This document shows, one piece after another, positions 6,512 to 64,000 of a stretch of 64,000 nucleotides of DNA. The notes beneath the pieces were generated by a model. The model was not told the DNA's origin, ran no database searches, and saw nothing but the letters and a program-made list of their open reading frames with translations. Location of the stretch: assembly GCA_963693365.1 (NCBI GenBank), contig CAVNZM010000012.1, forward strand, positions 5,406,889 to 5,470,888. The letters run 5' to 3'. Position numbers and translations under genes: made by a program. This DNA comes from Amoebidium appalachense. Lineage: Eukaryota; Protista; Ichthyosporea. Every line of letters starts with the position of its first letter. Position 1 is the stretch's first letter.

Positions 6512-7696
6512 CTACCACGGTCTCCAGGGGCCGCTCTCCTTTCTCTCACCCACTGCAACGGGTGGAGGTGCAAACTGAGGTGCCTCGACGCGAGGGGCAG
6601 CCGGGTACTCACAACGTGCCGACAGGGGCTTTGGTGTGTGGTAGTAGGGTGCATAGCGCACATGCTGGTATCCCGCCACTTGTGGCTCAGGCCTCGGGTT
6701 GAACAGCCCGGCAGCAGCCTTAAAAAACTGGTGCTGGTTTGGGTGGGCGGCATACACATCCTGGCCCTGCTTGGGGGACGGGCCAAGGGGAGCAATGTAC
6801 GCTGGCTGCTGCGGGGCATTTTGTTGGGGCGGAGCGTTGCCGTTCTCCTGACGGTCAAGCATCTCCGCGGCCGCAATAAGAGACCACATGCCCGTGCTGT
6901 GTTCCTCGTGCCGACTCACTTGGTGGTATTCAGAGGAAGGCACAGTAGGAGACATACCAACGGGCTCCGGTGGGCAGGGGACAAAGGCGGGCGGGGACAC
7001 TTTGCCGTGCACGTAGGGGGGTGGTGTGGGTGACTGCTTCAGGTCTGGCGAGTTTGTGCGGGGAGAGAGAGTGGCCGTGGGCGATAGCATATAGCCGACG
7101 ACCGTGGGAGCCACGTCCGTGAGGATTGCTGGGCACACAGGTCGGCTTACGAGGTGGGGTTGGCGAAGGGCTGGGCATAGGCGGCGCTTGTGCACGCCCC
7201 AGTGCAGGTCAAGCTCCTGCTGCAGCGCGAGAAAATCACGCGTAACCCCTGGCCCACCAAGGTCCGCAACAACAACCTTGGCACCCGTGGCATCTTCAAA
7301 CAGAAACTCGTAACCAGAATACTCGCAAAACAACGACTCCCGGTTGATGTAAATGTATGCAAATAGAGCAATGGTGTCTACGCGCTTGGGCTTCCACAGC
7401 TCCATTGTTTCGTTTGTGCCTGGGTGCTTAATGGTAACCGTCATACGACCCCAAGCGAAAATAGAACTCAACGTAAACACATCTCTGTTCATAATCAACC
7501 TCTTAACAACAGCATGAAGTCGAGCAGGCCAGTTTTCAACCTGCTCGATAGTCGTGTGGAATGGCTTACGTGCCATTCTTAGTTTCTTCTCTGAGCTCGA
7601 AACAGGACTACTCTTCACGTCTTTTTTGGTAGAATTTTCTATTCTTCTATTACCTTGGGCGGCTAGAAATACCTTAGCGCTCCCTCCTTTCTCCAT
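6512..7696 (-). CDS. Intronless 394-aa putative transcriptional repressor with C-terminal WRPW and a Sin3-interaction-like helix
   Basis: Long clean ORF, first ATG at 7696 (MEKGG...). Basic N-terminus, ~130-aa globular-looking segment, Pro/Ser/Gln-rich C-half, GMWSLIAAAEMLDR, ending ...GPWRPW*. TATA-like element near 7930 and several CCAAT boxes upstream. Confidence 0.75.
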   Translation of the reverse strand: MEKGGSAKVFLAAQGNRRIENSTKKDVKSSPVSSSEKKLRMARKPFHTTIEQVENWPARLHAVVKRLIMNRDVFTLSSIFAWGRMTVTIKHPGTNETMELWKPKRVDTIALFAYIYINRESLFCEYSGYEFLFEDATGAKVVVADLGGPGVTRDFLALQQELDLHWGVHKRRLCPALRQPHLVSRPVCPAILTDVAPTVVGYMLSPTATLSPRTNSPDLKQSPTPPPYVHGKVSPPAFVPCPPEPVGMSPTVPSSEYHQVSRHEEHSTGMWSLIAAAEMLDRQENGNAPPQQNAPQQPAYIAPLGPSPKQGQDVYAAHPNQHQFFKAAAGLFNPRPEPQVAGYQHVRYAPYYHTPKPLSARCEYPAAPRVEAPQFAPPPVAVGERKESGPWRPW

Positions 7697-9466
7697 GGCT
7701 ACACTAACATTGAAAAAAATCCAAACAGGAAAGACACCGTCCAAGCACTGTGGACGCGGTGGATGTGCAAAGTGCCGTTCGAAGGCGGCCGGCAGGCACT
7801 TTGTAGAAAGCAGCCGGCTTACGAAATCTGGGGGGGTCCAATCGGAAATCGTGGACGCAATTATATGGGTATGGATCAAAGGCACAAGAGGTTCCCAGAT
7901 CCAGCTGGCGCGTGGAAGAGTCTCGTACTATATAAATTGCATGCATTATGACGTCCCTTATTTGCTGTTATTGACCCAAAATAATATCTGCCCACTGTAG
8001 GCCTGGCCCAGTTTTTGGGTTAAGAATTTCTACAATATAAAATAGGTGAATCCACCGAACATCGTTGAGCAAGGTCATTGCCGAGGGCCGGGGGTGATTG
8101 CGTTCGCTGTAAATTTGCTAGGGTAAAGAGAATTTACCTTTGACTGCGCGCTCGATGATGATTGGTTCACCACTTATCGTCGAGCGATCAGCATGAGAGC
8201 GCGGTAAAAAATATGCGCGGAAGCAATCAAGCTGTTTGCAAACTCAGTCAACAGCAAATGGTAGATATTGGCTCAGCTAGCATGGCATGAGAATCCAATG
8301 GAGTAAGTCAATTTTTCTTCATTTATTTCCTATGCAGACATGGTAGTCTACCTTGCCCTTTTAATTTTAGGTATATCGTAAGGCATGGTCCAATGGACGC
8401 TGGCTGCGAAAGAGACCATCACGTTTTGGCGGTAAGAATGATTGGATGACCCACACTAACCCAATCAGCTCGAAGGCCTTCATTATCAGAAATAAGGGGT
8501 GTGGGCAATATTTTTGGAAATACTCTTTACTAGATCATAATATTCATGTTATCTACAAACCAACCAGAAATGTATAGCTAGATAAAAATGATATTAAACA
8601 TGAAGAATCTATAGTACTGAAAATATTTTATAATATTTGAATAGTTTTCCCACTTATTCGATGTGACACTAATAGTGGAAACAGCTTGCTGCACAGCGAG
8701 CAATATATCAACTTCGTCCTAAACAACGTTGTCAAGTTCAGGATATATATGCGTTCACTCCTTTCATGTGATTTTCGATTGCTCAAAAATCCATTGGCTA
8801 CGCATCCCAAATATGGAAGCACTCAAAATATCGGTGATACAAATGCATGATAAAGGATCACTGTGTAGCAATGGGGAAATTCCTAATCTTTTTGATAAAA
8901 TTGTAAAATGCAGATACCTTGGAATTGCGCCAAAAAATTGTTAAAAAATACATTAAGAGTTTTCTAAGGTATACGCATCAGCTTTATATGAAAGCCCTTC
9001 AACTCTGTGGTTTGACAACTTGCCTGACTGCGATCATCGCCTGTGTTATGATTGTAGAAGACCAATCAGTATCTTTATAGCAGGAGGAAATTGTTGCCAA
9101 ACGGCCTACGCAGCCGTGGGTGCGGCGTGGCCCGCCTGTCGTCAGCCTCCACAACCACAAGTATCACATATGGATAGGATATATATAACGCTAGCTCATA
9201 AGCATTTCCCTGATTACAGTAATAATTTTACTTGTAGTAAGAAATTAAGAGTATGAAGAGGCCATTTATTGGCCCAGGCAGGCTCCCTCGGAGTCCCAGC
9301 ATGTGAAGTCGATTCAAATTCCTTCTGAAGTTGTAGCCAATCGGAGATGGAGACGGCTCTTGGTATGCAGCCAATTGATCAGTGAGCAAAATGCTAAAAA
9401 GCATTTAGCATCAAAACATTCATGATTGGCTCGCTTAGGTTGAATAGATTCCATAACCTTCTGAGC

Positions 9467-11615: not shown

Positions 11616-33678
<22,063 letters not shown>

Positions 33679-34859: not shown

Positions 34860-35000
34860 CCCACAAAAAAACAACCCTTCTCTTCACCGTCACAAAGCGG
34901 AACTGAGCGCACGCACTGGCTTTTATTTTGGTGAAGGTCTGATTGGTTGAGCTGTGGTGAGCTTTGAAACGAGCCAATCAAATGGGGTTGCTTATCTCCT
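34860..35000. promoter_or_regulatory. Putative bidirectional promoter between ABCG (minus) and the intronless ORF (plus)
   Basis: Oppositely oriented CCAAT boxes (GATTGG at 34941, CCAATC at 34974) between divergent coding regions. Confidence 0.4.
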
Positions 35001-35049
35001 AATCAACTACCATATCAGGCAAAAGGCTTCGAAATGCGACCGTTACCTA

Positions 35050-36228
35050 ATGCCAGCCTTTTCGATTTTCTGTCGCGAGTTCTTTCCCATGTTTGGATCA
35101 TGCTCGTTTGGATCATGCTCGTCAAAACATGCGCAAATGTCTGGTGCTGCTCACGCTGGCCTTGCCCTGCGCGAGGCCAGTGGGAATTTGTGCTCGCTAG
35201 ATGGCAGTAACTTCCACGCACATGGCACAGAAACTGAAGATCTAATGGATTTTGCTTTCCAGAAAGGTTTGCTTGAAACAGCTCCAGTCTCTCTCAGAAG
35301 CAATTGTGACGGTCTTTGTGACACCCACTTCCACGCATTGGGAAAGCTAAAATATACCTGCTTAGATCAATTGCACACAGACAACGGTAACATTGACATG
35401 ACGCTAAAGCTAGCAACGGTAGACGCGATGAGGAGTCGTCTTCCTGGCACATATGTCCCAGAAAAGCCACTCAATTGCGCCCCCTGTAAGGTGCGTAGGA
35501 GCAGGGAGACACTCACAAAGAAAAGGAGACAGAACATGGAGGACCAACCACCTAGGAAAGTTACAGTCAACCTCCGAAGCCCAACAGATCAAGCACATGC
35601 ACATGATAATCAGTCGACCCAGTTAAGCGTGACAAGCAAACGACCAGAGCTGAAGGGTTCTCCCCTCGTTGTTTCCTCTGGTTTATGGGCCATTAGCTCA
35701 AACGCAACCCGAGAAGCACACAAGCAGACCGGCGCACCCTATCTTTCCTCTTCTCTACCACCCATCCTTCACTTGGGTTATCACACACAAAACGCTTTCC
35801 CCTTTACACAACAGCAAAACTCGGATACAGTGTTAGCGTTGCCGTACTGTGAAACTGCTACCCTCCCACCGCTGTTCTGCGACAATTCTGCCCCCGAACT
35901 TCCCCCATTGCTTCAGGTTACCCGAGATGTTACTAGATACCCACCCTTCCGCTTTCCAGAAAGCGAGGCCCGTCGTATTGGTGCCTCACTATCAACACAC
36001 GCAACGGTTACCATACCAAGGTTAGCTAAACTTGCATCAACCGGCCCACTTTCTTCTTCCTTAGCAACCACCTTTAGCCCTTCTTCCTTGCTCCCGTTCC
36101 CCTCCCTTCCGCCCTTATGTAAACCATGTACCCATGATACACAAGATCCCACCACTCTCCTGACGCGACAAACCGAGGCTATCACAACACTCCCACTAGT
36201 ACAGGCAACCGTTCAACACAATGTTTAA
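35050..36228 (+). CDS. Uninterrupted ~392-aa ORF: Cys/His-rich N-terminal domain, basic stretch and Pro/Ser/Thr-rich tail (putative zinc-binding regulator)
   Basis: First ATG at 35050 within the 34954-36228 frame. Contains LC...FHAH...CDGLCDTH...C...H...CAPCKVRRSRETLTKKRR and repeated LPP(I/L) motifs. Further Cys/His-rich frames at 36293-36929 may be additional exons. Confidence 0.55.
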   Translation: MPAFSIFCREFFPMFGSCSFGSCSSKHAQMSGAAHAGLALREASGNLCSLDGSNFHAHGTETEDLMDFAFQKGLLETAPVSLRSNCDGLCDTHFHALGKLKYTCLDQLHTDNGNIDMTLKLATVDAMRSRLPGTYVPEKPLNCAPCKVRRSRETLTKKRRQNMEDQPPRKVTVNLRSPTDQAHAHDNQSTQLSVTSKRPELKGSPLVVSSGLWAISSNATREAHKQTGAPYLSSSLPPILHLGYHTQNAFPFTQQQNSDTVLALPYCETATLPPLFCDNSAPELPPLLQVTRDVTRYPPFRFPESEARRIGASLSTHATVTIPRLAKLASTGPLSSSLATTFSPSSLLPFPSLPPLCKPCTHDTQDPTTLLTRQTEAITTLPLVQATVQHNV

Positions 36229-37595
36229 TCGCTGTCCCAAAAGTTGAACCGTTCTATCACCGTTGGCACCACCACGGCTTTCCTCTCTGCAGATCCCCAC
36301 GATGACTCCACCTCTGATGTTTACACTGTTAAGGAAGACGGACAAAGGATAATGCTGAGTGATACAATGATGCAGAATAGTCTCTGTCCGCTTTTTCTGC
36401 AGCGAAAAATGGGCTGCTTGGCTTCTCGTCTTGACTGGCTCCAGGAGGAAGGTATCCCTATCATGATGAACCATCAGAGTATCGGGAGCTGGCAGACGAA
36501 GCGGCGCCTGGTTTGTATGACTGCCTCCGTCATATGAACACATGCCACACCCCAAACCGACCCCACGGGCCAGACAAACTCGATTCCGACCTAATCGAGC
36601 GCCGCACTGTCGCCATGTGTTATGATGCTGCCTACTCCCATAACCACATATGCAACCATTCACCCCAAGCTTTCAACGAGTTGCTATCCCATCTGTTGTG
36701 TTGCACACCAAGAAAGCGTTTGTTTTGCGGCCGGCAAATAAGGAAACCCAATAATAGTGGTTGTGCGCTTTTGCTTGTCATGAACGTGTGCTCAGGCTCC
36801 TGCTCTGATCCTGGAAGTGGGGATTGTGTGCATGCAGAACAATTGGTATTGAGCGGCACACCGAGTGAATATTTACATACTGCTTGCCCGAGCCTTTCGA
36901 ACAGGCTGAGTCGCGGATACCCCTACTGAACATGACATAATGTGCACACTCAAAATTACTCATAAGGCCCACAGGGGTCAGATAATATATCATGGCCACC
37001 ACCACTTGCCTAAATATGGCTACCATATCAACACCGCCACATTCAAACCTACAGCTCCACCACGGCACACCCGAACTACCTTTAGCACAGACAGTCCCGT
37101 AAACCTTGTCAAACCTCCCCCGTGGTGGTCAACTAAACCACAAATAGTGGTCGTTAACTAGAACGTTGGACACCATTCTTTGTGTGTATCAATCGTTCTG
37201 CCATATATGCATGTCCGCAGCCCGGACAGTGTCTGTAAAGGTGGTAAACTGTCGCAATTAAATAGTTAGTAAATATAATTCTCTAGGAGGCCAGTCACGA
37301 ATATTATGACTGATGACGCCTAGGAGTGTGGACAGAGGCAACGGTGCACGTGGAAGACGGTAGCCTCTGCTCTCTGTGAGGTGAAATGGGTACTTTCAGG
37401 GGGTGTAAAAAAAAAATCAAATTAATTAAATTATTGTGCCAAGTACACACCGCAGTATAGAAAAGATTAAGGCTTTGATGCAAGCAGCGGTGTTGTTAGA
37501 AACGACCGGTTCGCGAAGAGGGGGGGAGGGGGGGGGGGGATTTCAGCAGATTATCAGAAAGGAAAGGAAAATAACCCCCCCCCCCCCCCCCCGAG

Positions 37596-38260: not shown

Positions 38261-54232
<15,972 letters not shown>

Positions 54233-54619
54233 TTTCCGCTTGCCAATCCCTAGCAAAAAACCATAGATCTGGCGGCCGAGCAGCCACCATATGTCACTAT
54301 AATGGGTGTGCAGGCTGATATTGCTGCTGGTCTAAGCCTGGCATAAAGAGAAGTAGAGCTTCGAGCATAGATGGGTCGTCAGCTCTGAGGCCTCGAAGCT
54401 GGGGATCACACCCAATTCAGAGTCAAGCAGCTCTCAAGACACTGGGGTCAAATTTATGCCAAAGTGTCCAACTAGCTAGAGCCATACAGCAGCACGGACG
54501 GTAGGTACAACGTACTTTTTGTGTATAGATGCAGAGAGCTGTAGAATTCTTTAACACTCCCAGTTCCCCGTATACAAGCTCGTGCAGCCCCTCTGTTTGC
54601 ACGCAACACCTACCTGGGG

Positions 54620-55140
54620 TGACTGTGCAGACTGTGTGGCGCCAAAACGATGATGACGCAAACAGAATTTGGCCTTGGCCCCCGTGACGTCATCAGACAG
54701 CTGGAAGGACCCCTGACCCGATTCAGCTAATCAATTTATGATCTTTAAGCCGGGTCAACAGCGGAAGTTACTGCCTGATCGACTCACAGACCCGAGTCCC
54801 TTGCAGACCTACGCGCACTGTCGGGAAATATTACAAAGGAATGTTGGTCCGCACACACACTGCTGTCCCTAATGCGCCTTAATCATGAGCTCATGAGTCA
54901 GACATCTTCAATGTAGCAGCTGCAGGGTTTTGAGACTGAGACAATCGCACACTTCATTCGCACTTGATGTTCTTCTCGGGTCGACCCGAACATCTTTTCC
55001 AATTCGATCCAAAATCGAAAACCGAACCTCATTTGATCCGGCCCGAGGATCACGTGTGTGTGACGTCACGGGGCCACGAGTGTTACAAAATGGTTTTTCC
55101 AAGTGTCACACAGTCAGAGATTTGTCGGTCACTCGCACCC
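54620..55140. promoter_or_regulatory. Bidirectional promoter region between UBE2O (minus) and eIF2-alpha (plus)
   Basis: Start codons lie ~1.05 kb apart, head to head. TGACGTCA (CRE) at ~54685 and ~55061, CGGAAGT at ~54762, CACGTG at ~55051, recurrent GACCCG. Confidence 0.55.
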
Positions 55141-55280
55141 TCTTTGAGTTAGTGGGGCGTTTTTTTTTTTGCTTTGGTCAGCGTTAGGCTACGCATACCT
55201 CTTTGTAGAGCAGAGGGTAAATATATACTTATACATTTAGCCCCGTTTTGTCCTTGTAGGACGCAAAGAAAGTATCGAAA

Positions 55281-56013
55281 ATGGTGCAGTCCTGCCGGTT
55301 TTACGAGAACAAGTACCCCGAAGTCAACGACATCGTCGTTGTAAACGTGCGCTCCATCGCAGACATGGGTGCGTACGTGTCTCTTTTGGAGTACGATAAC
55401 ATCGAGGGTATGATTCTTCTTTCCGAACTTTCGCGTAGGCGTATTCGTTCCATTAACAAGCTGATTCGAGTGGGGAGAAACGAGGTGGTGATGGTGGTGC
55501 GTGTGGACAAGGACAAGGGCTACATCGATCTGTCCAAGCGCCGTGTGTCCCGTGAGGAGGTGAGTTTCCTTGACACTTATACTTGATGGATCTATTAAGT
55601 TTTTTTTTTTTTTTTTGGTGAACAAACTCTGTGAGTTCCTTAGCCTGGCGGTTTGTTGGGAAATTCAGTACTGGCTCTTAGCGTTGCATGCTATAAACAC
55701 TGCTTCTTCAAATACTGGGCCTGAGATTGGGCACACGTATGCGCTGCATAGCAGTCACGGAGGTACGGTAACAGCTTGATCTTGATTATGATGACAATTC
55801 TTTGGTGTTGATTGTTTCATGTTCCGAAAAAACCGTTTCTTGACTCGACGTTACACATACACACACACACAAACACAGCGTCCCACAAGCATACAACACA
55901 GAAACACATGCAATAATTGAGCGCGAGCACACACTCAAAGCTTTCGGCACACACAGAAACGAAACACGCACAACACACACACACACACACACACACACAC
56001 CAGCAGCGTATGT

Positions 56014-56083
<70 letters not shown>

Positions 56084-57511
56084 AGCAGCGAAGTAGCTGC
56101 ACACACACGCACACACGTACCAGCATCGAAGTAGCTGCGGGGTTGCTTCTTTTGCTTTTATTGGCACAGAGATGTGTATATGAAAATACTGTTGTCCGCG
56201 TCGACAAGCTGTGCTTTCACATAACTCGTGGGGCTGCTGTCAGCTGTATCTGTGCTACCCCGTCGTTCCGTGTGACTAGTCATCTTTTTCGTGGCACATG
56301 GTTTTTTTTTTCCTTTTTCTTTTCTTCTTTTTTCTGTGGGGGGGGGGGGGGGGGGGGGGGGGGAGATCTCGGGCTGGCTCTTGGATCAATTTCTTTACTG
56401 CAGTTACCACAATTGCAGGGCATGAACTTGTACTGCACACAACACACACACACACATACACACACACATAAAGCCTTGTAGAGATCACACACACAAAGCC
56501 TTGTAGAGATGTTTGCATGGTAGGAAGACTTTGCTTGTCCACACACTACACCCTTTTGATGCGGGGATTTATCGGTGATGCTCTTGTTCCTTCGCCGTTC
56601 TTTTGCTGGCTTCGTGTCTCCAGAATGCAAATCCTCTTTAAGCCGTTCTGCTCTTTAGACAGAAGTGCACAGCTTCCTTCTCTCTGCTCTCCCCCCTTTG
56701 CTCTCTGGTCTGGGTTGTGCTCGAGTTTTTTATACCTGATGGCATGCTTCTTCTCCCCCCTCCCGGAACACACTCTCACATTGCCGTTATATTGTACAAA
56801 TAGCAAGCACCTTTCTTCTGTCCACTCTCCCCTCCCTTCAAACACACACCCACCCGCCCCTTTTCTCTTTGCTTGCTCTGGGTTAAGTGTGGCTATGCAT
56901 GCCTGGAACGCTCAACCAAGGTGAGCCTTGGCTTGTTTGCTGATGCCAGTTGCCTGTACGTGTATCTGCACTTTTGCTACATAAAGCTTGTAACATCATG
57001 CTATTGTCCCTTTCCCCTCCCCCCCCCCCCCCCCCCCCCCCCCCCTTCTTTTTGTTGTTGTGAATGTGCACTCCGTACCCTGTAACACTGATGATCCGCC
57101 TTCCCCTCCCCCCCCCCCCCCCCCCTGGAGACCGCTTTACTTCCATGCAACCGGGCATGGTTGCTCTGTGTCGTGCATCTGTAAGCACATACGCATTTTC
57201 CGCTGCACTGCATTAATTTGCACACACACATTCACCGTTTTGCTCACCTTGCTTGCATAAGCAACCCTGCTCGTCTTTGATTAAGACGGGTTGACCCTCC
57301 CAAGTTCAGTTGATGCTGCTGTCTGAGTTGGAGAGTCGTATATACGCGGGCTAAGGGGTCGAAATCAGACGCAATTGATGACTTGGGCCCTCCCTGAGGA
57401 TGGGCTCTGCTTATGACGCATACTGTGCGTGTGGCTGATGTTGCATGCTTGAATGTTTGCCTTTGCATGTGTCCTTCGTGTATGCGTACTTCGTACCGTG
57501 TTCCGCACTCA

Positions 57512-57543
<32 letters not shown>

Positions 57544-58270
57544 ACCACCACCACCACCACCACCACCCTTCTTGACTCTATCTCGCCTTCCTCATTTTTT
57601 TTTGGGGGGGGGGTGGGGGGGGGAGGGGGGGGGGCACCAGCACTTGCATAACATGCTGGTTTTTGTGTGCGCATTCGGGTGTCCCTGCCTAGACTGTTTC
57701 ATAATGGTTGCGGTTTTCTTTCTCTCCTCTTTTTGGTGTGTGATCTTTTTGGTGTGTGAATGCGTGTGGCTTAGGGGGGGTGGGGGGAGGGGGCTTTTCA
57801 TTTATTGTTTGGTGTGGCGGCGTGAGAAGCATGTGGTTGTGTTTTATATGCTCACCCCTGCTGTGGCAGGGGGGAAGGGGAGGGATTGGAGAAAAAGCAT
57901 GTTTGTTTGTGCACGGAATTTCGGGTCTCCAATTTGTATCGTCTCTCTCTCTCCCCTCCCCCCCCCCCCCCCCCCCCCTCCCCCTCCCCCACCCACCCAC
58001 CCACCCACCCACCCATCCCCTTGCCCACCCACCCACGTTTAGGACAAGCACATCTTTAAGATTTCGTTGACGTGTTGAGCCCACCCACCCACGTTTAGGA
58101 CAAGCACATCTTTAAGATTTCGTTGACGTGTTGGATAGGTCGGAAAACCCGGATACTGTGATGGTTTGAGTTCTACCTGAGGATTGGCTCTGCCTTTAAT
58201 GCGTAATGTTTACTTGTGCTTTGCAGCATGCATCGTGTGGTCCGTCATGAATAGACAGCTCGTACTCTAT

Positions 58271-58305
<35 letters not shown>

Positions 58306-58878
58306 TTCGTTCTCTTCTCTTCCAAAACACACACACACATACAGGCAGGAAAAAACTAATGAAGGATTGGGAATGAAAGAACCTTGAGGCAAAGAAAGAA
58401 GGGGGAAATATGTGGGTGGGGGTTGGTGATTGGGGGGAGGGGGGGGGGGGGGAGATACCCGTTACGTTTTCTGTACGTGGTTCCTTGGCGTGTGCATAGA
58501 GAAAATCCCTTCTCTTGATATGGTAGCTTGTTCCATAGGCACGGTTTTTTTTTTCTCCGGGGGGGGGGGGGGGGGAGGGGGGGTGCCTTCCTGGCTGCCT
58601 GCATGTTTACTGTGCTCTTTTTTTGCGACAGGTTTTTTTGTGGGGCAGAGGGGAATGTGGTGGTGGTGGGGGGGGGGGGGGGGGGGGGGGGGGGGCTTAG
58701 GAGGCAAGCTGATGTGGATTAGGTGTGTGTGGGCGTGATGTCGTGCTGTCTGATGGTTGCCCAGAGTGTAGGTACCTTGGTCACCGCTGCTGCCAGCCCA
58801 GTGCCAATCTCCCTTTATCCTTTGCCAGGGCCACAGTTGACCTACACCGCACACGCATGAACTGAACTTCTACTCTCC

Positions 58879-58909
<31 letters not shown>

Positions 58910-59865
58910 GTCGCTTTCTTGTGCAAGTAGTGAAATGCACACCGCCCAATGTCTAATCATACCTTTCTTTTTCTGTGCAGGTAGTGAAATGCGAGGAGAA
59001 GTTCCAGAAGGTCAAGGCTGTCAACGGGATCCTTCGGCACGTTGCAGACATTGTGAACTGCGACCTTGAGGAGCTGCACGAGAAGACGGCCTGGAAGCTG
59101 GCCAAGGTCTACGGCAACATGTACGACGCATTCAAGCGCGCAATCACAGACCCTGACGAGGTCATGGCCCACTGCGACCTGGACGACCGCACAAAGGAGG
59201 TGCTGCTCACGAATATTCAGCGCAGGCTCACCTCCCAGCCCATCAAGGTGTGTGGGTGGGTGGGTGGGTGTGGGGGGGGGGGGGGGGGGTGGATGGGTGG
59301 GTGGGGGGAGGGAGAGGGTGCGAATGTGTGTTTGTTTGTTTTTGCGGGGGGGGGGGGGGGGAGGGGGGGGGGGGTTGCAAGTATGGATTGACATGTCAAA
59401 AGGGGTGCATGTTGTTGATGCGGGCTCGGTGCCTGTGTGTTTTGATGCAGGTGGATGTGTATTCTTTGGTGGTGTGAGTGCGTGTGTGTGGTAGGGTTGT
59501 GTATGTGTGTGTGTTTGAAGGGGGCAGGGGGGGTTGGAGAAGGCTGTGTGTGTGTTGGGAAGTGTGGAGGGGTGGGAGGGGGGGGGGGGGGGGGGGGATG
59601 TAGGAGTGTTTTCTTATGAGCTTGAGTGGGGTGAAGTCTGTGTGCTGAGTGCATGGGGGCTGCAGGTGCGTGCGGACGTGGACGTGTCGTGCTTTGCATA
59701 TGAGGGTGTGGATGCGGTCAAGACGGCACTGCGGACGGGTCTTGCTATGAGCAAGGAGGACATGCCCATCAAGATCAACCTGGTGGCTCCCCCCCTCTAC
59801 GTCATCACTACGTCATCCCTCGACAAGGACAAGGGCATCCAGGCCCTCACAGACGTCGTCCAGGT

Positions 59866-59927
<62 letters not shown>

Positions 59928-60800
59928 ATCGTGTGTGTGTGTGTGCATCGTGTGTATGTGCATGTGTTCTTGAATGTGTGCGTGTGTATGTGCATATGGT
60001 TGTGGGCGTGGGTGTTGGGTGCTTGATGGCAGGGTGTCCATTTGTGTGTGTGTGTGTGTGTGTGTATTTGGGGGGGGGGGGGGGGGGGGAAGGGGGATCC
60101 GTTGGAGCACGAATGTCTGTTGTGGACGACCACTTCACTCCCTGGAGTGTCATGTGCTGTCATTTTATGTGTTTGTGATGTGTGTGTGTCGGGGAGAGGG
60201 CGGGGAGGTGTTGATATGTCCATGTGGGACATTTATTTTCAACATGCCGTGTGTTATGCTGTGCGTGAGCAAGTCCAGGAGAAGAAAGAAGATCTGCCGG
60301 TTGTCAGGATGCTGTTTCTAGCCGTGTTCTTTTTCCTGTTTGATGACCCATTCTGTATACTTTGTGTGTCACCAGTATGTGTGATTGTAATTGTTTGATT
60401 TCGGGGGGGGGGGGGGGGGGGGGGGGGGGTTGGAGGCAAACTTTTGATTCCCGTTTGGTGGGTCCTGCCTCGACGGCCTCTTGTTCCCCTCTCTCTATGT
60501 GTATGTGTGGGTGTGCTGGTGTGCCTCCCTTTTGTGTATATGTGCATGTGTTCTTACCTTTGTCTCTGGCTGCAGGTGATCAAGGACAAGATCACGGAGC
60601 TTGGTGGCCAGCTTGAGGTGCGCAAGGAGGCCCGGGCAGTCAACGAGACGGACGACCGTGAGCTGCAGCAGATGATGGACGAGGAGCTGCGCCGCCAGAC
60701 AGAGGAGGGAGACAGCGACGAGGGGGAGGATAACGAGGGTATCAGCGCACCGGGTATCGGCGCACCGGCGGCTGCTGAGGGCAACGATTTTGATGAATAG
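55281..60800 (+). CDS. EIF2S1: Eukaryotic translation initiation factor 2 subunit alpha (322 aa)
   Basis: Exons 55281-55559, 58981-59247, 59666-59863 and 60576-60800, all phase-0 GT-AG. Contains [34 protein letters not shown] (conserved phospho-Ser), [23 protein letters not shown] and an acidic tail. Confidence 0.98.
57247..57513 (+). repeat. Structured poly(C)-ended repeat family, copy B (eIF2-alpha intron 1, sense)
   Basis: Homologous to copies A, C and D. Followed by a C-run at 57514-57543. Confidence 0.8.
58037..58271 (+). repeat. Structured poly(C)-ended repeat family, copy D, 5'-truncated with a 54-bp tandem duplication at its 5' junction
   Basis: TTTCGTTGACG...ATAGGTCGGAAAACCCGGATACTGTG...CCTGAGGATTGGCTCTGC...GCATCGTGT..TCCGT...TCGTACT then a C-run at 58272. 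58024-58077 is duplicated at 58080-58133. Confidence 0.7.
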
Positions 60801-61304
60801 ATGGCTAGATTAGATGAGGTTAATGAAGGGGAAGGGGGGGGGGGGGGGGGGGGGGGTATGCACAGTGGCACAGTGTAGGCATGTATGGACGGGTAGTTCA
60901 TGTGTACTAGATTTAAGTGATTGTGTGTGTTGTAGGGTGTTTGTTTTGTACTGGATTTGATGTGTTTGGTTGGAGTGTGTGGCGTGGTGAAGCGGGTGCA
61001 TTGTTGTACATGGTTTTTTTTCTGGTTAGTTTTTTTTTTGGTTTTATGTTAGATATTGTTGCAGCCCTGATTCAGAATTAGAGTACACCCGGTGTGTGCC
61101 TGGCCTCTTTATATTCACAAAGTTCCCAGCAACGATTTTCTTCGTAACTTTTGCGCTGGAACTTTTGCGCTGGCTGTCTGGTTGCCATGCCAGCAAATAA
61201 AGTTCTCATTATGACAGTCGGAGTGTTTTCAAATCAGGTTATTGCGCAATATGTTGTTATTGCCATCATCGGCCATTGCATGCAACCCCAACCCCCCCCT
61301 CCCC

Positions 61305-61462
61305 GGGCTCTGGGGCCGAAACTCAGACGCAATTGATGACTTGAGCGGCAAGTCGGGCCCTGCCTGTGTTTGCCTTTGCATGCATATGTGTCCTGCACCA
61401 TGCTGTACACATGCTTCTCACGATCGTGTAACTATGTGTACTTCGTACCGTGTTCCGCATTC

Positions 61463-61463
<1 letters not shown>
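61305..61463 (+). repeat. Structured poly(C)-ended repeat family, copy C (5'-truncated, C-runs on both sides)
   Basis: GGGGCCGAAACTCAGACGCAATTGATGACTTG, TGTTTGCCTTTGCATG and TATGTGTACTTCGTACCGTGTTCCGCA match copy B. Confidence 0.8.
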
Positions 61464-61498
<35 letters not shown>

Positions 61499-61499
61499 T

Positions 61500-61765
61500 G
61501 CCGGCGGCCAGCGCGTGCGACTGCAACAGCGTGGGCAAGTGCTCGGTGTACGGCACGTGCTACACACCCGCCACAGCCGCTGAGTACAACAAGCTGATCG
61601 ATGCAGGGGGGGAGGTGACGGCGCCAACGCAGTTCGAGGGCAGCCCCAAGGGCTCGAACGAAACGTTTTTCAGCATCATGCCGGGCACAAGCATCCACGT
61701 GCAGGCCGGGCAGAGCCTCACGAAGGTGCTGAAAAACTGGCGGCGCGCGGTGCGATGCGGTGGTC
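61500..61765 (+). CDS. Orphan coding exon or gene fragment, Cys-containing, unknown product
   Basis: SACDCNSVGKCSVYGTCYTPATAAEYNKLIDAGGEVTAPTQFEGSPKGSNETFFSIMPGTSIHVQAGQSLTKVLKNWRR. Same strong G/C third-position bias as eIF2-alpha exons 2-4. Partner exons not identified. Confidence 0.5.
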
Positions 61766-62931
61766 ACGGTGGTCAAGTGCACACAGTACCAGAGCTACTT
61801 TCGTGGCGGCGTGCAGCTGTGTGAGCTGGGCTCGTCCAGTGACGATGGCTACCAGTGCACCCGCAGCACGTGCTGCAACTATTGTAGTTTGGTCCAGTAA
61901 GTGCCGATAGTATTTTTAGTGTAAAGCAGTATGTCTGAATGGTTCGCCAAATGGTAAAACGAAGAAGCATTTATACCCGCCCTGTTGTTCTCGAGCGGGA
62001 GGAGGCAGCGGTGAGAGATGACACGTGTTCGGTCAGTCGGCGGTAACGGCTACATAGCGGTGCAAGCTGATTGGCCCTAACGGGTAGAATGTTAAGCTCA
62101 GTCGTATGTATCTTTAGTGATTGGATATAGATCAGGTATAGTTATGAAGTGATCCGTAGTTATCAGTAGATAGGTGATATGATTGGTGGCTTTTCCACTG
62201 TTCTAAAAATGTGAGTGAGCCGCGTACCAGCTTTGTAGAGCTGGCTGTGGGCGTCGTTCGTTCAGTTCTTGTTTTTAGAGCTAGTGTGTAGGTGAAAAGA
62301 AAAAAGGGGAGGGAGCAACGTGATAAGGTAATAATTAGGCTGTTTGGGTGTTTTCTTGGTTTGGTGGCACCTTGTGTAAAGGGGCAGAAGCTGAGACCTC
62401 AGTCTGATTAGTTGGTGCCTTACGGTTTGCTCTTGCTTTCTCTTTGGTTTTCGTTTTAGCGTTTGTGTGAGTGTCTGGCATCAGAGGTAAAAGGGATTTG
62501 TAGAGTTAGTTGGTTGAACTAAGTTTGGTGGTGCTACTGTAAAAGCGCACAAACTAGTTGCCTTAGCTAGCTGTCCTTTTTTCTGTTGACTTCTGCAATT
62601 GTCACACGAATTCTGGCAACTCAACGTTAACCAGCTCGTTCTCCTCATTTTCAAGGTTCCTTTTTTCGCTCTAGATATTAATACGACTTTTACATTTGTC
62701 TTTTCCCTTCAGTATGTTGTTTAGCTCGCTAGCGCTGAGGAGTCTTGTAGAGTGAAAAACTACGTAAATTTTGTCTGTCTCTCTGCCTATACAGTCACAG
62801 TGAACTTTCTGAACTCCAAGCATTACAAATACGTGCTCTGCTTTCCTTGACATGGGCAAGTGAGCCTCTCTTCTTCCCGAGCAGAACTCTCTTATATACG
62901 ACATTGTGAGTCAATGCACGGTCTCTACTAG

Positions 62932-64000
62932 GTAGTCGAGCTCGGTGTAAACACACGGCCTCCCCCTGTGGGGAGGTGCGGGGGGTGTCACGGTGGCGCG
63001 CGTGTGTGTGGATGGACCGTTCGATGGCAACAAGGATGCCTAGGCCCAGCTTCCACAGATTCGTACCCCCCTGCGCCTCCCGCAGCTGCCCAGCTGAGGC
63101 AGGGGGAGGCCACGGTCCACAGCCTTCGTTCCCGAACACAGCTGCCACGGAACCAGCTGAGTTTGGTTCTTTCCCCTCGGAAGTGGTACACCGGTGAGCC
63201 CGTAGCCCCCCATGTTAGTACCCCTGGTGAGGGCGTCACGGGCGCGGCTGAGCCAGGCTTGTTTCCCCATGTGTCTAATGATTTACTTCCACTTCCCCTT
63301 TTTGTAGTCCCGCTGTTGCTTGATGGTGTTAGGTTGTCCTCTCCAAGAAGACGTGGGAGGTTCAACAAGAGATTTGCTGTGTTAAAGTTGGTTAATAGAA
63401 CCATAGCTGCAATCAACACGTTGTATAATGGGCCACCTGGCTCGGTAGAATCTCCTAGGAACGATGTTTGGCACAACATGCACGACACCTCTTCCCAGAA
63501 TCACACACACTTTTCAACATTTTCCCCTCCTACCAGCACACATTTTTTTCCCACGCCTTTTCCTAAATCCACGCACTTTTCTCATGCACCCTCACCGGCA
63601 CAGACACAATCCATTCAGCGAATTTTCGTTTTTTGCGCGGATATGCGCCGCAGGATCAGCAATGTCCCCTTAGCGGCTGTGTCTGAATCTTTCCCATATT
63701 TCAATCACTCAAAAGCTTTCACCCCCATAGTTGCTGAGCGTATTGCCCTTCCTCCTGAGGGGTTTGGGGCAACAGTTCCGCTCCTAGAGGTCCTTCCACC
63801 TGACCTCAAGGAGATGATGGAGAAGCCAAACGTGTTGGTGGTGGCGTCAAATTGCACGGGTGACGCGGTCGGACAGCCGAACGGTCACGGAGTTTGCGGG
63901 CTTGGGGGCGTGTTGGCAACTGAGAGCACCACTGAGGGTGCTGAAGGAGCCCACCCTTTGCCCGGGCGTCCTGTCCATGCATTTGCGTCGCCTGCGGAGT
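62932..64000 (+). mobile_element. Open frame of at least 356 codons running off the window; possibly the N-terminal region of a DIRS/VIPER-like retroelement pol ORF
   Basis: Stop-free frame from 62932 to the window end, absent from the ORF track because it has no stop. Reads DLLPLP...SPRRRGRFNKR...VNRTIAAINTLY...PSPAQ...RI...IVAERIALPPEG..TVPLLEVLPP...SPAE. The resemblance to tyrosine-recombinase retroelement pre-RT regions is from memory only. Confidence 0.4.

Follow-up and report, generated by a model that had tools for sequence, protein, structure and literature searches.

What kind of sequence leaves dispersed copies that share one 3′ end beside a run of C, differ in how far they extend 5′ and carry a pseudoknotted RNA core? 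We addressed this question in a stretch of 64,000 nt from the ichthyosporean Amoebidium appalachense, hereafter the window, by delimiting the copies, modeling the RNA fold and comparing both with described retroelements and ribozymes.

Copies and C tracts of the repeat family

Simple repeats abound in this eukaryotic window, and a plain repeat search was swamped by microsatellites. An initial annotation had recognized four clear copies (A–D). Using blastn, A and B aligned at 79% over 179 nt (E = 6e-33). An nhmmer profile built from A–D and run on the window gave 13 matches at E ≤ 10, with E values of 1e-30 to 1e-49 for the same four copies that made up the profile. These data confirm that A–D are homologous and that the 3′ end of each runs up to a C tract. 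The family is larger than first described, as a fifth clear copy, E (23660–23787, minus strand; E = 5e-6), had been overlooked. Of two degraded 3′-end candidates proposed earlier, the one at 19645–19712 (minus) was recovered as a weak 3′-end remnant (E = 0.002), while the other, at 17425–17480, was not among the 13 matches. Immediately 5′ of B, a further weak 3′-end-like remnant (57041–57107, plus; E = 0.009) is enclosed by two C tracts and is perhaps an older insertion into the same tract.

Copy A (47662–48340, minus) is the longest of the five and the only one with an intact ribozyme core. Its 5′ end lies at or beyond 48340, and a (GT)n run begins near 48466. Copy B (57126–57513, plus) represents a second subfamily with a 5′ part unlike that of A; the two subfamilies have only the core and part of the tail in common. 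Copy C (61305–61463, plus) is 5′-truncated, lacks CUGANGA and is C-rich on both sides, as is copy E, which begins near the 3′ strand of helix P1. Copy D (58037–58271, plus) has decayed and begins with a tandem duplication of 56 nt; it has kept CUGAGGA, lacks the upstream stem II strand and is changed in the GAAA region. A 3′-terminal hairpin, GTAC-TTC-GTAC, is conserved in B (57486–57496, plus), A (47690–47680, minus) and C.

Sequencing-run contigs were placed on A and B at 80% likeness; the resulting summed depth does not give copy number. Contigs fitting A (47662–48340) numbered 3,253, 4,614 and 6,357 in the DNA runs X1, X2 and X6, respectively, and those fitting B (57126–57513) numbered 3,090 in X2 and 3,976 in X6. 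Run X13 is only guessed to be RNA, and its 311 and 181 contigs were not counted as expression; run X15, with only four contigs, carries no weight for habitat. For A, summed depth was high to at least 48340, with 96–181 contigs per DNA run passing an end of the stretch, and B was covered to 57126, where it abuts a C18 tract (57108–57125, plus). Both copies are therefore longer than first stated: the positions 47911 and 57247, previously taken as points of truncation, merely mark where A–B similarity ends. Upstream of the core, summed depth drops steadily in the 5′ direction, from ~355,000 to 53,000 in X6 and from 630,000 to 292,000 in X1, which, read as depth and not as copy number, fits progressive 5′ truncation. 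Truncation at the 5′ end with a common 3′ end is thus present in the family, in the window copies as well as in contig depth. Penelope-like elements of the Naiad/Chlamys kind typically form partial tandems (pseudo-LTRs), inverted 5′ copies and a 30–40 bp tail. Among the joints listed for A and B contigs, only a few at low depth go back within the element, to which the short duplication in D can be added, and none changes strand or forms an inversion. At one joint in X2 (47802–47792), a single contig carries a short CCCTA-type insert resembling telomeric repeats inside the element.

C tracts follow all five copies on the 3′ side, including a C14 tract after A (47648–47661, minus) and a C30 tract after B (57514–57543, plus), against a background of 0.5% of strand positions lying at most 3 nt from a tract of ten or more C. 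On the 5′ side, at least 14 of the adjoining 20 nt are C in four of the five copies (B, C, D and E) versus a 4.5% background, a count that is partly circular because the 5′ boundaries of C–E were placed where homology ends. Poly(C) is not special to the copies, as the window contains 156 C or G tracts of at least 10 nt (71 C, 85 G). At the 3′ terminus of A, the loose ends of 31 and 53 contigs read as poly(G) on the plus strand, 77 contigs break in the same manner at an internal C run near 47775, and several joints connect partial copies through G runs. Whether the element ends in poly(C) or targets it had been left open by the initial annotation; given C tracts on both sides of copies, we favor a target over a tail. 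Most simply, copies would have inserted into poly(C) and been joined on the 5′ side through C-rich microhomology, and the family may have helped to seed the dense C/G tracts of this genome. Separately, a motif that follows (CA)n (CAGGCTCTAG...TGGTATGCAG) occurs three times around A (47490–47625 and 48735–48815, minus), as a second small microsatellite-linked repeat.

A predicted hammerhead with a divided core

The hairpin, the long stem and the stem crossing it that had been described for A and B all exist and interleave as a pseudoknot, with G.U pairs on the strand that ends in poly(C) (five in A and two in B). A closing stem is likewise present, one base from its reported position, at 57257–57263/57408–57414 in B. 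A GAAAC motif beside the crossing stem raised the suspicion of a hammerhead, yet one that departs from the order of types I–III. Eckert et al. 2023 (PMC10085705) defined the hammerhead blocks C, G and S, held them to be uninterruptible and validated the types SGC and CSG; all six permutations in print presuppose an unbroken CUGAnGA block, and the non-circular examples described there come from metatranscriptomes, metagenomes and one bacterial candidate.

Our model of the core predicts a hammerhead ribozyme with CUGAGGA, GAAA, a GUU site and stems I–III. In A, it spans 47743–47904 on the minus strand and begins, from 5′ to 3′, with the closing strand and the P2 hairpin (47868–47888), which lies just 5′ of G10.1 and has a 6-nt palindrome in its loop. 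The 5′ strand of stem II (47861–47866, with G10.1 at 47866) follows and pairs with 47809–47804; it is succeeded by the 5′ strand of helix P6 (47860–47851, partner 47784–47776) and a kink-turn bulge plus GA (47850–47845, with 47787–47785). Next comes block S (47828–47844), that is, a stem III strand (47844–47832), the GUU site with U17 at 47831 and a stem I strand (47830–47828). Block G (47788–47809) comprises the stem II strand (47809–47804), GAAA (47803–47800) and the stem III strand (47800–47788). After the P6 partner, a truncated block C (47763–47772) offers a stem I strand (47772–47770) and CUGAGGA (47769–47763) and is followed by the closing strand. The corresponding hammerhead in B (57257–57414, plus) has stem II at 57293–57298/57360–57355, U17 at 57329, GAAA at 57361–57364 and CUGAGGA at 57394–57400. 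Cleavage is predicted 3′ of U17.

The blocks thus run S-G-C, and not CGS, GSC or SCG as in types I, II and III. Type SGC has this order and also a helix that connects stems I and II at their far sides, the role of P6 here. In that type, however, the stem II strand follows CUGAnGA after 0–2 nt, whereas here the strand normally found after CUGANGA lies ~100 nt upstream, and the pairing available downstream is weaker. With this strand order, A9 is unlinked to G10.1, and two helices enter the core at the break: in P1/P1′ (in A, P1 47901–47895/47755–47749 and P1′ 47893–47891/47761–47759), the sequence 3′ of A9 pairs with that 5′ of P2, and P2 stops 1–2 nt before G10.1. The hammerhead core nucleotides (CUGANGA, GAAA, an NUH site, A15.1–U16.1 and G10.1–C11.1) all occur in A and B. 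The C after GAAA is missing from B in the window and is carried by contigs of X2, X6 and X13 (44, 35 and 7, respectively). P6 is a 9-bp helix with one bulge, formed by the two long linkers. In both copies, P6 is separated from stem III by a 3-nt bulge, tandem G.A/A.G pairs and then A.G or U.U. A 3-nt bulge with tandem G.A/A.G is the standard kink-turn pattern, and a kink-turn is accordingly predicted in both copies. A GATGA...CTGA pair had earlier been likened to a box C/D kink-turn; GATGA does belong to a predicted kink-turn, but with an upstream partner, and CTGA starts the hammerhead core.

How well is this fold supported? We compared 43 pairs of the model in A and B: 34 are identical, three are kept through one-sided changes, five are changed on both sides and one is lost in B. 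The two-sided changes fall in stem I, stem II (twice), stem III and P6, and the pair broken in B is restored by contigs of three runs that contain the missing base. The comparison rests on two full copies, so significant (R-scape-type) covariation cannot be obtained from it. A descriptor of the layout, composed after the element was known, found one locus (A) when both strands of the window were searched and none in 5,000 dinucleotide shuffles of the A core; in 40 shuffles of the window, the rate was 0.05 loci per 64 kb. B fails it solely by the missing C after GAAA. In the 19 and 23 variant rows listed for the contigs, CUGANGA, GAAA and GUU were unaltered in the sample's own organism with one exception, a row at the end of GAAA (0.8% and 11.5%) where the alignment shifts around the base missing from B. 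Variants at 47862 and 47808 swap U-A for C-G in stem II at similar depth in all four runs, the two positions being tallied separately. The other frequent variants affect loops, bulges or flanking sequence, preserve pairing (47859 and 47772) or introduce the base of the other subfamily (47780); the exceptions are 57298 (38% in X2), which would open the last stem II pair of B if its partner stayed the same, and P6 changes carried by single contigs of X13.

Some features strain the model. Stems II and III of A comprise 6 and 13 bp, and stem I only 3–4 bp (3 in A). The nested part of the model, without stems I and II, has a free energy of −41.8 versus −53.7 kcal/mol for the minimum free energy fold, and in comparison with shuffles the A core folds no better than chance (z = −0.8), with z = −2.6 for B. 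P6 directly follows stem II with zero linker, a junction that looks strained in a monomer; a similar geometric problem has been raised for some type-SGC RNAs (PMC10085705). Self-complementary palindromes, which could promote dimer formation, occur in the linker hairpin of A (47816–47825, minus) and B (57337–57346) and in the P2 loop (47875–47880, minus). Another stable hairpin, P5 (47778–47773/47761–47756), would compete with P6 and P1′; none of its pairs changes on both sides, and it was set aside as an alternative fold. A search of 47000–62000 against Rfam, which had been suggested as a check, returned 84 matches at E ≤ 10, located on simple-repeat hairpins or elsewhere, with no match on the cores of A–D and none to a hammerhead.

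Relatives and alternative readings

Among retroelements, the closest likeness was found in two groups of Penelope-like elements surveyed by Craig et al. 2021 (PMC8557442), the Naiads and their sister group, the Chlamys, for which (C)n targeting is known. In that survey, Naiads and most Chlamys lack a canonical hammerhead, with 'half cores' noted. Insertion in these groups is biased toward microsatellites, among them (C)n, (CA)n and (TA)n; 13 of the 49 Chlamys families are listed with a (C)n preference, as are 0 of the 54 Naiad families. It was GAAAC upstream of CUGAUGA at published Naiad and Chlamys 3′ ends that let us recognize the split-core solution. In the supplement of the same survey, a non-exhaustive motif search evaluated by eye placed the split-core layout at the 3′ ends of seven of the 54 Naiad consensus records, which by file order belong to a ctenophore, three near-identical corals, one unplaced source and two octopuses. 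These seven have six upstream stem II pairs (five in one record) and 0–2 downstream, a hairpin before stem II, a closing stem and a P6-like helix; one has a 2-bp stem I. Six further Naiad records, assigned by file order to nematodes and a spider and in several cases labeled 'HHR_half_core', read by eye as complete type CSG, which in the literature covered is known from two metagenomic sequences. Among the few Chlamys 3′ ends viewed, the split-core motif was absent, and two (C)n Chlamys 3′ ends had no CUGANGA in the passages covered.

The family shares with Naiads (PMC8557442) 5′ truncation, very high copy number, insertion at microsatellites and, by eye in seven records, the split-core 3′ end. 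It differs in that Naiads have been described only in animals, with (TA)n or no preference listed, whereas the present copies come from a non-animal holozoan, prefer (C)n and are known from their RNA part alone. Chlamys share the (C)n preference, 5′ truncation and non-animal hosts, but have been reported from green algae, Chara, spike mosses and Physarum, and the hammerheads listed for them belong to canonical type I. In Penelope/Poseidon, Neptune and Hydra elements, too, a hammerhead is located close to the 3′ terminus, and its site is frequently GUU (PMC8557442, file S2), although these are type I hammerheads with canonical C-G-S order and an unbroken core. Non-LTR retrozymes (bioRxiv 10.64898/2026.07.22.740005), which have the same canonical order and unbroken core, are arranged in tandem arrays, while the copies here are dispersed. 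With type SGC, as in HRIMA-1 and its variants (PMC10085705), the core shares S-G-C order, core nucleotides, at least two pseudoknots and the stem I–II helix; the difference is that block C is split here, with two helices entering at the break. In a search of openly accessible articles and preprint texts, we found neither a split-core hammerhead nor a permuted hammerhead in Naiads. The ichthyosporean genome paper PMC11244446 mentions 'Penelope' 0 times in the passages, section 6 and supplement searched. Pattern scans returned 0 and 0 loci in viral contigs; six loci in metagenome contigs, with likeness limited to 18–24 nt around the pattern, and two in prokaryote genomes without further similarity were attributed to chance.

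We conclude that the family is a real, high-copy, poly(C)-targeting retroposon carrying a predicted split-core, noncircularly permuted hammerhead. The split core appears to be a variant form of a known ribozyme class, undescribed in the literature searched. Probably, the copies are the 5′-truncated 3′ ends of a Naiad/Chlamys-type Penelope-like retroelement that would target poly(C), and their core is a predicted self-cleaving, non-circular hammerhead of this split type. The earlier proposal of a 5′-truncated retroposon with a conserved pseudoknotted fold is thereby supported. It compared the element with LINEs and SINEs instead of Penelope-like elements; a ribozyme had been among its options, though the complete rearranged hammerhead went unrecognized.

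Within a Penelope-like element, the fold might alternatively no longer cut, or cut only as a dimer, and be kept for binding of the reverse transcriptase. The short stem I, the GUU site, the strained-looking monomer geometry, the palindromes in loops of A and B and the loss of an intact core in four of the five window copies would all suit this idea, as would dimeric cleavage, known for Penelope-type hammerheads from a title in the reference list of PMC10085705. We nonetheless regard it as unlikely, since the catalytic nucleotides are identical in two otherwise differing subfamilies and essentially invariant among contig variants, and GUU is common among the Penelope and Hydra hammerheads listed in PMC8557442. 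An ordinary type-SGC ribozyme would result if stem II were completed by the sequence that follows CUGAGGA, with 2 nt inserted in between, leaving the upstream strand as the alternative. Such downstream pairing amounts to four pairs in A and six in B, with wobbles, and copy C has two changes that would improve it. It is, however, 3.7–4.6 kcal/mol less stable than the upstream pairing and competes with P1/P1′, and two-sided change is seen in the upstream pairing. The seven Naiad examples, judged by eye, have 0–2 downstream versus six upstream pairs (five in one record; PMC8557442 supplement), and we consider an ordinary type SGC very unlikely.

The copies could also be 3′ ends left by a microsatellite-targeting non-LTR retrotransposon or SINE of the restriction-like-endonuclease type that carries, or has captured, the same hammerhead variant. 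The fixed 3′ end, the small terminal hairpin and 5′ truncation fit this equally, tandem and inverted structures are scarce among the joints listed, and microsatellite targeting is known for restriction-like-endonuclease elements (PMC4640811). What makes this origin quite unlikely in our judgment is that a 3′ hammerhead of the same layout occurs in Naiad records and that (C)n is listed for Chlamys (PMC8557442). A further count against it lies in the ribozymes themselves, which in non-LTR elements are as a rule HDV-like and located 5′. Finally, a box C/D-like RNP RNA encoded in introns, or some other noncoding RNA of the host, spread by retroposition and close to the intronic RNP once suggested, is scarcely credible. 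The predicted kink-turn and the sense, intronic position of B and D speak for it; yet A has no RUGAUGA and CUGA is part of the hammerhead core, which leaves no box C/D pair, Rfam matched none of the cores, and the family combines thousands of contigs with a truncation gradient.

Other candidates were rejected outright. HDV-like ribozymes combine a P1/P2 pseudoknot with P3, P1.1, P4 and a catalytic C in J4/2; here just 3 nt (GAA) separate the crossing 3′ strands, too few to accommodate P4 or J4/2, and Rfam gave no match. The motifs of twister, pistol, hatchet and group I RNAs are missing from the core. For Replitrons and Helitrons (PMC10288648), no terminal direct repeats were seen.

Proposed propagation and genomic setting

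If the copies belong to a Penelope-like element, an autonomous partner with a GIY-YIG endonuclease and a reverse transcriptase would nick C/G homopolymer DNA and prime cDNA synthesis near the RNA 3′ end by target-primed reverse transcription, activities of which nicking and priming have been shown in vitro for a Penelope-like protein (PMC11167929). Most copies would stop early and join the target via C-rich microhomology, producing C tracts on both sides. Acting on read-through or tandem transcripts, the ribozyme would cut on the 3′ side of U17 (47831 in A), ~170 nt from the element end, as has likewise been proposed for the hammerheads of other Penelope-like elements. Naiad and Chlamys proteins combine an N-terminal GIY-YIG endonuclease, a CxC motif and a Penelope-type reverse transcriptase. 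Of 493 stop-to-stop frames, 131 were compared with Pfam, and none of these matched a reverse transcriptase or GIY-YIG domain. It is thus the RNA architecture and the target on which assignment to Penelope-like elements is based.

Several reading frames deserve mention in their own right. A short frame of A (~48150–48362, minus; 70 aa) ends in tandem stops ~240 nt upstream of the ribozyme and may be the C terminus of the element's protein; for 48153–48362, none of 24 candidates and no Atlas entry matched, and five matches to repeat proteins were judged spurious. A 356-aa frame at 62932–63999 (plus) runs off the end of the window and has no Pfam, Atlas or homolog match; its sequence is reminiscent of the part preceding the reverse transcriptase in DIRS/Ngaro-type elements. 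Between two genes, an intron-free and repeat-free segment (34951–36926, plus) with broken frames of 425, 102 and 164 aa and no Pfam match is possibly a decayed transposon. An uninterrupted 471-aa frame with a proline-rich tail and no Pfam match is located at 6515–7927 (minus).

A broader proposal, to which we give an even chance, is that the split core is a seventh natural hammerhead wiring: an active ribozyme in which a multi-helix junction and a kink-turn hold together a block C broken between A9 and G10.1, common to animal Naiads and a poly(C)-targeting holozoan lineage. Under this proposal, the presence of the layout in animal Naiads and in a unicellular holozoan would mean that it predates animals, and Naiad and Chlamys hammerheads would be concealed by non-circular permutation and not lost. 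A split-core form in thousands of eukaryotic copies would then be a new hammerhead topology, and would answer the puzzle of why hammerheads seemed absent from Naiads and Chlamys in contrast to other Penelope-like elements (PMC8557442). The Naiad/Chlamys clade would also reach into ichthyosporeans, in the gap between animal Naiads and algal Chlamys. The thousands of copies themselves constitute a natural dataset for covariation.

Active copies in sense introns could, in addition, cut host pre-mRNA. Copies B and D lie in sense orientation inside intron 1 of the host eIF2-alpha gene (55281–60797, plus), the coding exons of which extend over about 55281–55562, 58978–59250, 59645–59854 and 60570–60797. 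Its first exon is 100% identical to a EukProt transcriptome protein, 97% to a gene prefixed Ihof and at most 88% to others; we take the prefix to denote Ichthyophonus hoferi. The window also contains, on the minus strand, an ABC-2 type transporter gene (11600–33700) with N-terminal EGF-like exons and many repeat-filled introns and a UBE2O-like gene. Judging from exon hits, A and E appear to be sense-intronic too, so that every placeable copy (A, B, D, E and the remnant at 19645–19712) would lie in the sense of a host intron. On the sense strand of the eIF2-alpha span, G tracts number 12 versus five C tracts, both small numbers.
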